Virus record (IMG/VR): IMGVR_UViG_2869953405_000008
Coordinates: 1 to 21,533 of that record
Length of the DNA stretch: 21,533 nt
Direction: 5' to 3' (one strand)
Source of the DNA: a virus
Lineage: Duplodnaviria; Heunggongvirae; Uroviricota; Caudoviricetes
Positions 12,001-15,000 of this stretch are shown in pieces (the first letter of the stretch is position 1; every line of letters starts with the position of its first letter). Made by a program: the position numbers.

Positions 12001-15000
12001 GGGATTCACCATGCCAGTTTCTTTTAACAAACTCCCCGCAAAACAGACAACTGTCAACCGTCTGAATTGTGAGACATTTAAAAAAAAGGCCCGCAAAAGC
12101 GAGCCAGGGAAAATAAGTGTGGCGCGTTGTACTGGATTCGAACCAGTGACCGATTGCTTAGAAGGCAATTGCTCTGTCCGGCTGAGCTAACAACGCATGA
12201 TGCAGATAATGGACCGCCATCGGGGACTTGAACCCCGCGCAGCCAGCTTCGAAGGCTGGCGCTCTTTCCTGATGAGCTAATGGCGGTATGTGATGGTGGC
12301 CCTTGCTGGATTTGAACCAGCGACCTGGCGATTATGAGTCGCTCGCTCTCACCACTGAGCTAAAGGGCCGGGAGCCGCATAATAACGACGCGTAATTAAT
12401 TCTTCAATATCATCCGTTCTGGCTGACTAAATCCTGTACTTCCCGAACCGTCTGCTCAAAACGTTCAGTCTCCAGCTCAACGCCAATTGCACGACGCCCG
12501 AGCGCCAGTGCCGCTTTCACTGTCGAACCCAACCCCATGAAAAAATCTGCAATCAGGTCACCCGGACGACTGCTAGCGCTGATTATCTGCTGCAGCATTT
12601 CTGCCGGTTTTTCGCACGGATGTTTCCCGGGATAGAACTGCACCGGTTTATGCGTCCACACATCGGTATACGGCACCTGCACCGTCACGCCAAAATACCG
12701 CCGCAGATGTTTATATTCACTCAGCAGCTCCGCATACTGCCGGTTCAGTGAGGTATACGTATCCACCAGCTGGTGGTGGAGCTTTTCCAGTTCACCACGC
12801 CGATGCTTCTCTTCTGCCACCCGGGCAAACAGCGCCTGTAATTTCAGATAATCGCTTTCATTCGGCAACTGCCACTGACCGGCACTGAACCAGTGCGACA
12901 CCATGTTTTTCTTTCCTGTGGCATCTGCAATCTGTTTTGCCGTTATCCCCAGGGCAGCTCGCGCATCACGAAAGTAAGAAATCAGCGGGGCCATCACATG
13001 CTGTTTCAGTGCACTGCCCTTCGCCGCATACCCGGCATCTTTCGGACGATACGGCCCCTGATAATGTTCCGCGAACAGAATGCGCTCTGTGGCGGGGAAA
13101 TACGCCCGCAGGCTTTCCTTGTTGCATCCGTTCCAGCGTCCGGACGGCTTCGCCCAGATAATATGGTTCAGCACACTGAAGCGTTCACGCATCATGATTT
13201 CGATATCAGATGCCAGGCGATGACCACAGAACAGGTAAAGACTTCCGGCAGGTTTCAGCACCCGCCAGAACTGCGCCAGACACTGGTCCAGCCACTTCAG
13301 GTAATCATCGTCGCCCTTCCACTGGTTATCCCAGCCCTCAGGCTTCACTTTAAAGTACGGCGGGTCCGTGACTATCAGGTCAACAGAATTTTCGGGTAAC
13401 GACCGGATAAATTCCAGGCAGTCGGCGTTGATTAACTCACAACTGGATATTTTTACAGTATTAAGCATGGATCATTAAGCCTGTCTCTGATAGGCTCATT
13501 CTGCTTTTGCGCAAAGCAGTGGGCCTGAGGTTTGCTTGTGAACCCAACGCATGAGCAGATGGCTGGTGGGTGCCCCTAACACCCACCAGCCGCCCATTTA
13601 CCACAAATAAAAAAGCCTTCACTGCGGAAGGCGTCTGTAACAACCGAACTGATAGTCTGCCAGACCCGCCATAACCAGCTGGGTCAGTATTAACTGGCAG
13701 CGTTCGCGTGAAAGGTAAGTATTCTGCGCTATCTCCCCGACTGTCGCCGGTTCGGTAACGCTTAATTCATTAAACACCACTCTGGCGGTTTCTGTCATAT
13801 CCTGCTGTTTTAGCATGTCTTTTCCTTTTCCGGTTAACGTGACACACCAATAACTCTTGTCGAAAAAGCCAGCAAGCTGAAAGACAGGTATTCACCGCCA
13901 CCAGCGCGTTTACTGTACTGACGCGATTTCAGTCATAAAAAACCCGCTCGGCGGCGGGTTGTAGAAACTCTTCTAACGTCAGGCGTAAAACGCCCATCGT
14001 TATGACGAATTTACCACAGATTCCGGAAAAATCAACCTTGTTACCTAGTTACCTTTTTTAACTGCCGCTCAGCCCATGCTTCTTCAATATCAAACCGGGT
14101 CACCAGCGCATCATAAAATTTCTTAACTGTTTTTTCCCATGACGCGCGTGTTATCTGGTTTGTCACCTCGCATATAGCATTAAATGCCTCCGTTGATGGT
14201 AGTCTTTCATAGCCACGACCACCACAACGCTGGCAGTCTCTGATAACAGGCATACCACGTTTTACCGACTCTTCACGATGAATGGCGACACCACGCCCAC
14301 GGCAATCCTTACAGGCGGTGGAAACCTCACCCTTTCCGCCACACTCCGGACAGGCAACTTTTACCACCTCCCTGACTTTTTTCCATTCTTCCCAGTAAGA
14401 CGGATACACACCTTTCGTACACTTTGCCCATACCGGCGGCTTACCATCCGGATACTGGATCTTGTTTGTAAAAACCTCGCTTTCAATAAATTTTTTTCCG
14501 TGACAGCAGGGGCACTGTTTTTTGCTCGCCGCGCTACGGGCATAATCTTCAAACGCATACGAAGCCATAATACGCATCACTGCCGGTTTTATTTCTGCCG
14601 GGAGTTTTCTTAACGCCGCCACGCGATCACACCGACTGAGTGCATATTCTGTCAGCAATTCTGTTGCCCGCTCTCTGTCATTCATACTAATGCCCATTTT
14701 CCCAAGGAACGCAGAAACCCCCATCTCAGCCCGATTCTGTGTCATGCCCTGCGCGGCCATCACATCAGTGATACTCAGCGCATCTTTCGACGTTGAGGCC
14801 GATGCATCAGTCAGGCCGGGGGATTTTGGGGAGTAGTATTTCGGTAAATCTTCCAGTTTCATTTTTTGACCTGCCCTTCAAGCATTATGGGATAAATCTT
14901 CACCCCCAGACGTCCACCAGATACTGGCTGAGCACGAACGATATTGATTTCATCAAACTGCTCATCGTCCATTAGCAACCCCGCATGCGTCAGCGCATCC

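Follow-up and report, generated by a model that had tools for sequence, protein, structure and literature searches.

The 21,533-nucleotide IMG/VR record IMGVR_UViG_2869953405_000008 (Caudoviricetes; hereafter the window, meaning this whole stretch) carries three intact tRNA genes on its minus strand. They very probably form the ileZ-argN-argO codon-supply module of lambdoid prophages of the Shiga toxin (Stx) phage type, here residing in a defective prophage of Shigella sonnei. A sequence-only reading had placed an Ile2(CAU)-Arg(UCG)-Arg(UCU) cluster at 12120-12369. ARAGORN and Rfam return exactly those coordinates and anticodons, and ARAGORN, run over the full 21.5 kb, calls CAT, TCG and TCT and no further tRNA gene. 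The three-tRNA cluster is thus confirmed in full, and its genes are real and intact. It is an already known and very common prophage tRNA cluster; the finding is correct but ordinary. As standard lambdoid prophage cargo, it has slight significance beyond correct annotation. The useful outcomes are that a doubt over the UCG anticodon is removed, that the CAU gene should be annotated as tRNA-Ile2 rather than tRNA-Met and that the tRNA module has its own conserved promoter sequence. The names ileZ, argN and argO are taken from the GenBank annotation of phage 933W; RefSeq labels the cluster tRNA-Ile/Arg/Arg. The genes follow one another 5' to 3' along the minus strand as CAU, UCG and UCU:

12379..12407, minus strand: promoter-like site (TTGAAG, 17 nucleotides, TATTAT), from a consensus scan; it aligns with the pT promoter of 933W
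12294..12369, minus strand: ileZ-type tRNA-Ile2 gene, anticodon CAU, 76 nucleotides, CCA encoded (ARAGORN, Rfam, 933W alignment)
12210..12286, minus strand: argN-type tRNA-Arg gene, anticodon UCG (predicted to read CGA/CGG), 77 nucleotides, CCA encoded (ARAGORN, Rfam)
12120..12196, minus strand: argO-type tRNA-Arg gene, anticodon UCU (predicted to read AGA, and AGG by wobble), 77 nucleotides, CCA encoded (ARAGORN, Rfam)
12080..12105, minus strand: intrinsic terminator, GGCUCGC-UUUU-GCGGGCC followed by U8, from a terminator scan

Identity and integrity of the tRNA genes

The Rfam tRNA model, whose gathering score is 29 bits, scored the CAU gene at 72.5 bits (E-value 2e-14), the UCG gene at 58.0 bits (2e-10) and the UCU gene at 70.1 bits (1e-13), all far beyond chance. 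In a cloverleaf check, A27.C43 of the CAU tRNA was the only non-standard pair among the acceptor, D, anticodon and T stems of the three tRNAs, in line with the near-canonical stems described from sequence alone. U8, A14, G18-G19 in the D loop, U33, U54-U55-C56 and A58 are kept in all of them. With complete cloverleaves, the conserved tertiary nucleotides and scores that clear the family threshold by a wide margin, the three would be functional-type tRNA genes rather than pseudogenes.

The CAU anticodon is labelled Met by ARAGORN by default. However, ileZ is identical to K-12 ileX at 69 of 76 positions and is much less similar to K-12 metT. It shares with ileX the acceptor pairs 1-5 and the anticodon loop, and differs from it by one compensated pair (C6:G67 in ileX, U6:A67 in ileZ), among other positions. 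The pairs 4:69 and 5:68, which are major identity elements of E. coli TilS (PMC11947777), are C4:G69 and C5:G68 in both ileZ and ileX; the corresponding pairs of metT are U4:A69 and A5:U68. RefSeq labels homologues of ileZ tRNA-Ile. Because of this ileX-like body, the TilS pairs and the RefSeq labels, the CAU gene is, at sequence level, well supported as encoding an ileX-like tRNA-Ile2 and not a tRNA-Met body, as the sequence-only reading had proposed. Host TilS would be expected to modify C34 of the ileZ tRNA to lysidine, turning it into a reader of AUA.

The A27.C43 mismatch tops the ileZ anticodon stem and corresponds to G27.U43 in host ileX. Like the rest of ileZ, the anticodon arm is identical in a four-way alignment of the window, 933W, Stx2a_1447 and PhiR49_2. 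We also collected 120 related IMG/VR loci using the ileZ anticodon arm as a pattern; since this pattern spans positions 27 and 43, the sameness of the arm among those loci is by construction.

For the two tRNA-Arg genes, the sequence-only reading had left a doubt: it took argN and argO of Stx phages both to serve AGA/AGG, so that UCG might be a real difference or a misread. The alignment with 933W that it proposed gave identities of 76/76 for ileZ, 73/77 for argN and 76/77 for argO, with the same anticodons. ARAGORN reads CAT, TCG and TCT in 933W itself, and gives an identical anticodon series in Stx2a_1447 and PhiR49_2. The 933W record annotates argN as 'CGG?' and argO as 'AGG?'. UCG is, therefore, the normal argN anticodon, neither a variant nor a misread, and the TCG call in 933W rules it out as the mark of a variant cluster. 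The anticodons were read correctly, then, while the codon assignment does not hold for argN: AGA and AGG would be served by the argU-like argO (UCU) alone, and argN would serve CGA and CGG. To our knowledge, the E. coli K-12 host set has no tRNA with a UCG anticodon, and argN has no K-12 counterpart with that anticodon.

E. coli arginyl-tRNA synthetase recognizes A20 of the D loop, C35, and either G36 or U36 as identity elements. The D loops, AUCAGGAAA in argN and AGCCGGACA in argO, both have an A immediately 3' of G18-G19, and the synthetase identity elements are present. K-12 argU has the same anticodon loop (CUUCUAA), D arm and discriminator (G73) as argO, although the two genes are only 56/77 identical overall. 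From its 933W counterpart, argO differs only at position 37 (A in the window, G in 933W). That G37 (L003, 3296-3372) is common to three IMG/VR copies, while the window and most relatives have A37. The window argN and that of 933W differ at four positions: two D-loop bases, the T-loop base R57 and the pair G51:C63 against G51.U63. The window argN has no stem mismatch, keeps all the conserved positions and lacks the G52A, A58G and U67A changes of decayed alleles; its Rfam score of 58 bits exceeds those of the 933W and UTI89 alleles (43.4 bits in UTI89).

The putative transcription unit and its relatives

The -10 hexamer of the promoter-like site ends 9 nucleotides upstream of ileZ, and the site overlaps the last codons of a methyltransferase gene. 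Among the 120 related IMG/VR loci, 118 had enough upstream sequence for comparison, and in all 118 a TTGnnn-16/17-TATTAT motif (TATCAT in four) ends 8-10 nucleotides upstream of ileZ. The offset is fixed even in loci that have unrelated sequence upstream of the -35. In enterohaemorrhagic E. coli, a primary transcription start driving these tRNAs has been mapped upstream of stx2AB (PMC7547250). At the other end of the cluster, a strong terminator had been claimed at 12080-12105, and the scan located there a hairpin with a 7-bp stem (12105-12088, six G-C pairs, -12.6 kcal/mol) followed by a run of eight T reaching 12080. The stem is also present in 933W, where the record annotates it as a terminator, and in Stx2a_1447 and PhiR49_2.

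Promoter, three tRNA genes and terminator together look like a small self-contained operon, given the fixed offset of the promoter-like motif across all the loci compared. A sigma-70-type promoter (12407-12379) would transcribe ileZ-argN-argO and transcription would stop at the terminator (12105-12080); host RNase P and 3'-processing enzymes would presumably mature the precursor of about 290 nucleotides. Late transcription under Q control would probably also run through the module in an intact phage. A comparative paper on the pR' region makes no mention of tRNAs (PMC6266700). We considered whether the STnc100 element downstream could be the true late promoter or leader, which would leave the tRNAs outside the late operon. 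We rejected this because, in 933W, STnc100 follows stxB2 and lies well downstream of the annotated pR'.

The cluster is widespread. A megablast search with a 401-nucleotide query spanning it matched 289 phage records, mostly of Stx-converting phages, with matches spanning 80% or more of the query in 248; the genes in the matched records are annotated ileZ, argN, argO or tRNA-Ile/Arg/Arg. At least 80% of the 250-nucleotide cluster was found in 2,578 out of 5,426 complete E. coli genomes, in up to 13 places per genome. A StxA-like gene lies within 3.5 kb in only 7 of the 90 IMG/VR loci with enough downstream sequence. Given that about half of the complete E. coli genomes carry the cluster and that so few loci have a StxA-like gene nearby, it is a feature of lambdoid prophages of Escherichia in general and is not toxin-specific. 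A scan of genome contigs with an overly strict argN pattern, which matched only E. albertii and one metagenome-assembled genome, has little bearing on taxonomic spread. The architecture of the 120 IMG/VR loci was distributed as follows:

Ile2, Arg(UCG), Arg(UCU): 58 of 120
The same without argN: 29 of 120
Ile2, 'Lys(UUU)', Thr(UGU), Gly(UCC): 14 of 120
Ile2, Arg(UCU), Thr, Gly: 6 of 120
Other arrangements (ileZ alone, ileZ with just argN, and one-off cases such as L044): 13 of 120

We scored defects in each copy as stem mismatches plus lost universal bases. By this measure, 116 of 118 ileZ copies and 76 of 82 argO copies are defect-free, against 35 of 59 argN copies. Seventeen argN copies have at least two defects, typically G52A, A58G and U67A together. 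In copies that diverge more, RefSeq annotations include just one tRNA-Arg, and 'tRNA-pseudo' was reported in this cluster by a recent study of stx2i (PMC13641118). From these comparisons, argN appears to be the labile member of the cluster, and the window allele would be among the intact ones. The window argO is the commonest allele among the IMG/VR relatives (37 out of 97). Elsewhere argO shows a compensatory change from C50:G64 to G50:C64 in seven copies and a change from T4:A70 to T4.G70 in more than 12.

One relative (L044) has an argN-type scaffold, 72/77 identical to the window argN, that carries UCU through a single G36-to-U change. A related scaffold in loci such as L022 and L030 occurs in an Arg(UCU) or a 'Lys(UUU)' form. 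Rather than a novel isoacceptor, the latter is more likely an Arg(UCU) derivative that has decayed, given its missing U33 and a mismatch in a stem. Within the cluster, the second slot appears to be an evolving cassette, an argN scaffold with UCG, UCU or a probably decayed 'UUU'.

Codon demand and competing explanations

The proposed role of the cluster is to provide additional tRNAs for five codons (AUA, AGA, AGG, CGA and CGG) that are rare in the host and common in phage or horizontally acquired genes. We compared their summed use per 1,000 codons:

42 K-12 genes: 10.5 per 1,000
Phage genes of the window: 41.0 per 1,000 (odds ratio 4.0, p = 3e-26)
stxA2 of 933W: 87.8 per 1,000 (AUA alone, 47)

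The codon-usage comparison suggested by the sequence-only reading thus gives a use of these codons by the window phage genes four times that of the K-12 sample, a contrast somewhat exaggerated by the inclusion of highly expressed genes in the latter. Among Ile codons, AUA has a share of 21% in the window phage genes and 4% in the K-12 sample; for AGA and AGG together among Arg codons, the shares are 23% and 4%, respectively. This bias is consistent with the rare-codon support that had been proposed. The translational role itself is a further step, and we infer that the genes would be transcribed in this strain, that lysidine would be formed, and that the tRNAs would be aminoacylated and of translational benefit. 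The tRNAs found downstream of Q in other lambdoid phages have likewise been proposed to supply codons over-used by the phage (PMC3636060).

Besides the inflated baseline, several points weigh against assigning the cluster this role in S. sonnei. The prophage is dead: the window holds three copies of the insertion sequence IS600 and an IS1 remnant, and contains no terminase, head or tail-shaft genes, so the benefit that the phage itself once drew from the tRNAs can no longer be in play. The intactness of the tRNAs is no proof of selection, since S. sonnei is a young clone. The argN tRNA has unusual features, a C1:G72 pair and a U73 discriminator. Finally, argN is often decayed or missing among the relatives, and at least this gene is therefore dispensable in many backgrounds.

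These points bring forward the explanation that the cluster is a neutral relic, a passenger in a decaying S. sonnei prophage, intact for lack of time and making no measurable contribution. We consider this unlikely, although it deserves serious consideration. The state of the prophage and the decay or loss of argN in many E. coli prophages fit it well. So does the lack of any difference in a 361-nucleotide region containing the tRNAs among the eight S. sonnei chromosomes examined, including 53G, which fits a young clone better than demonstrable purifying selection. On the other hand, promoter, three cloverleaves, CCA ends and terminator are all intact here, and ileZ and argO are nearly always free of defects among the relatives, with the compensatory change in argO. 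Heavy use of AUA and AGA by the host virulence plasmid also makes an effect plausible. In the ipa-mxi-spa, virA and icsA genes of pSS_046 (counted in region 80000-129999 of the S. sonnei plasmid, L139), AUA reaches 31.7 and AGA 15.3 per 1,000 codons, about 13 times the K-12 sample (2.4 and 1.2).

Since these invasion genes over-use the codons of ileZ and argO, the module could benefit the host. A stronger version of this idea is that the module, which still has its promoter and terminator, outlived the phage in S. sonnei through being of use to the host; the remnant would then have been domesticated to help express type III secretion genes. We regard this as a speculative proposal with a small chance of being correct. 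If true, prophage tRNAs could aid the translation of AUA/AGA-rich Shigella virulence plasmid genes.

The codon-supply reading also has to be set against a role in counter-defence, in which the phage tRNAs would replace host tRNAs cut by anticodon nucleases, such as colicin D-type enzymes acting on tRNA-Arg. The points in its favour are indirect: tRNA-Arg accounts for two of the three genes, some relatives have anticodon-loop variants (A37G, in the argO of 933W and in a single argN allele) and the second slot varies among relatives in both anticodon and scaffold. However, neither a nuclease gene nor an immunity gene is linked to the tRNAs in the window, their anticodons are precisely those for the codons classically rare in E. 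coli, and the neighbouring phage genes have a strong codon bias, making this explanation very improbable. Equally improbable is that the tRNA block serves mainly as a homology patch for exchanging Q/methylase and stx or other cargo modules: the block is conserved while the sequence upstream of the -35 differs between loci, and the downstream cargo varies (the few loci with stx; an empty stx position and a nearby IS600 here), but this would be a side effect rather than an alternative function, and it leaves the conserved cloverleaves, CCA ends, compensatory changes and fixed-offset promoter unexplained.

Prophage setting and comparison with known systems

The window matches the S. sonnei chromosome LR213449.1 with no mismatches over 19,124 ungapped bases, and the element is a defective lambdoid prophage remnant riddled with insertion sequences, not a live phage. 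The IS600 copies lie at 5749-6905, 10476-11632 and 18084-19240, and the IS1 remnant at 1-378. On the minus strand, the gene order leading to the tRNAs is DUF968, RusA, a Q-like antiterminator of 273 amino acids, an open reading frame (ORF) of 65 amino acids and a DNA methyltransferase. After the tRNAs come STnc100, IS600, a second STnc100, a nanS-p-like esterase, a holin, DUF1327, another IS600 and tail-fibre assembly genes. This places the cluster, on the late-gene strand, in the interval between Q and the lysis genes, as is typical of lambdoid phages. The main neighbouring genes are:

14041..14862, minus strand: Q-like late antiterminator (Pfam PF03589 Antiterm; phrog_127 and phrog_25523, 'anti-termination protein Q-like', E-value about 1e-112)
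12410..13468, minus strand: DNA N6/N4 methyltransferase (Pfam PF01555; PHROG DNA methyltransferase families)
10476-10778 and 10814-11632, plus strand: genes of the IS600 copy downstream of the tRNAs
9877-8024, minus strand: nanS-p-like gene
7873-7658, minus strand: holin

The location given in the sequence-only reading, between a methylase and the toxin slot, is therefore accurate, with the PF01555 gene on one side and the position occupied by stx in Stx phages on the other. Because only about 45 nucleotides separate the tRNA terminator from STnc100 here, this toxin position is empty in the window.

Two diverged copies of the Rfam small RNA STnc100 lie on the minus strand at 10100-10309 and 11854-12043 (161 and 124 bits). 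Both have CTCACAATTCAG..TTGACAGTTG upstream and a terminator-like hairpin at the end. The pair is also present in UTI89, and 933W has one copy directly after stxB2. Between the two copies in the window sits the downstream IS600 (10409-11675; 1,264 bp), flanked by a 3-bp target duplication (TCC). S. sonnei 53G does not have this copy, so the insertion is polymorphic within S. sonnei.

Other elements were detected further from the cluster. A hok/sok-type toxin-antitoxin locus lies in the prophage early region at 17026-17201 on the minus strand (Rfam sok, 112 bits), with a small ORF at 16876-17088; Pfam HOK_GEF was found in the matching S. sonnei loci. IsrK (72 bits) and the C4 antisense RNA (76 bits) occupy 733-918 on the plus strand, directly upstream of an Ant/Rha-like regulator ORF (969-1526, plus strand), an arrangement resembling the isrK-antirepressor module of Gifsy-type prophages. 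A low-G+C island (37-40%) at 19200-21533 contains ORFs of 203, 107 and 139 amino acids with no Pfam or PHROG match. In the first of them, AGA accounts for 10 of the 203 codons.

Among known systems, 933W (NC_000924, 21120-21371) and other Stx phages have the same anticodons, order, pT-type promoter and terminator hairpin as the window. In 933W, too, the tRNAs lie downstream of Q and upstream of STnc100 and the nanS-p-like esterase gene. However, 933W has stx2AB between the tRNA terminator and STnc100, whereas the window has no stx. The window Q is of another type (273 amino acids, with two Antiterm domains), and a full methyltransferase gene stands between Q and the tRNAs, as in Stx2a_1447. 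The ileZ-argN spacer is also two nucleotides shorter in the window than in 933W, and a polymorphism of this spacer was previously noted in O157 (PMC2858043).

The likeness extends to non-Stx lambdoid prophages. The 250-nucleotide cluster of E. coli 55989 is 100% identical to that of the window, the 401-nucleotide query is 97% identical in phage PhiR49_2, and in UTI89 the methyltransferase, the tRNAs, the two STnc100 copies and a DUF1737 gene are arranged alike. The S. sonnei copy differs from these non-Stx E. coli prophages in having IS600 between the STnc100 copies and in the truncation of the rest of the prophage. More distantly, the lambdoid phages SfI, Sf6, ST64T and 21 have Asn-GUU and/or Thr-UGU tRNA genes downstream of Q (PMC3636060). 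They share with the ileZ-argN-argO cluster the genome position and the proposed codon-supply role, while the tRNA species differ.

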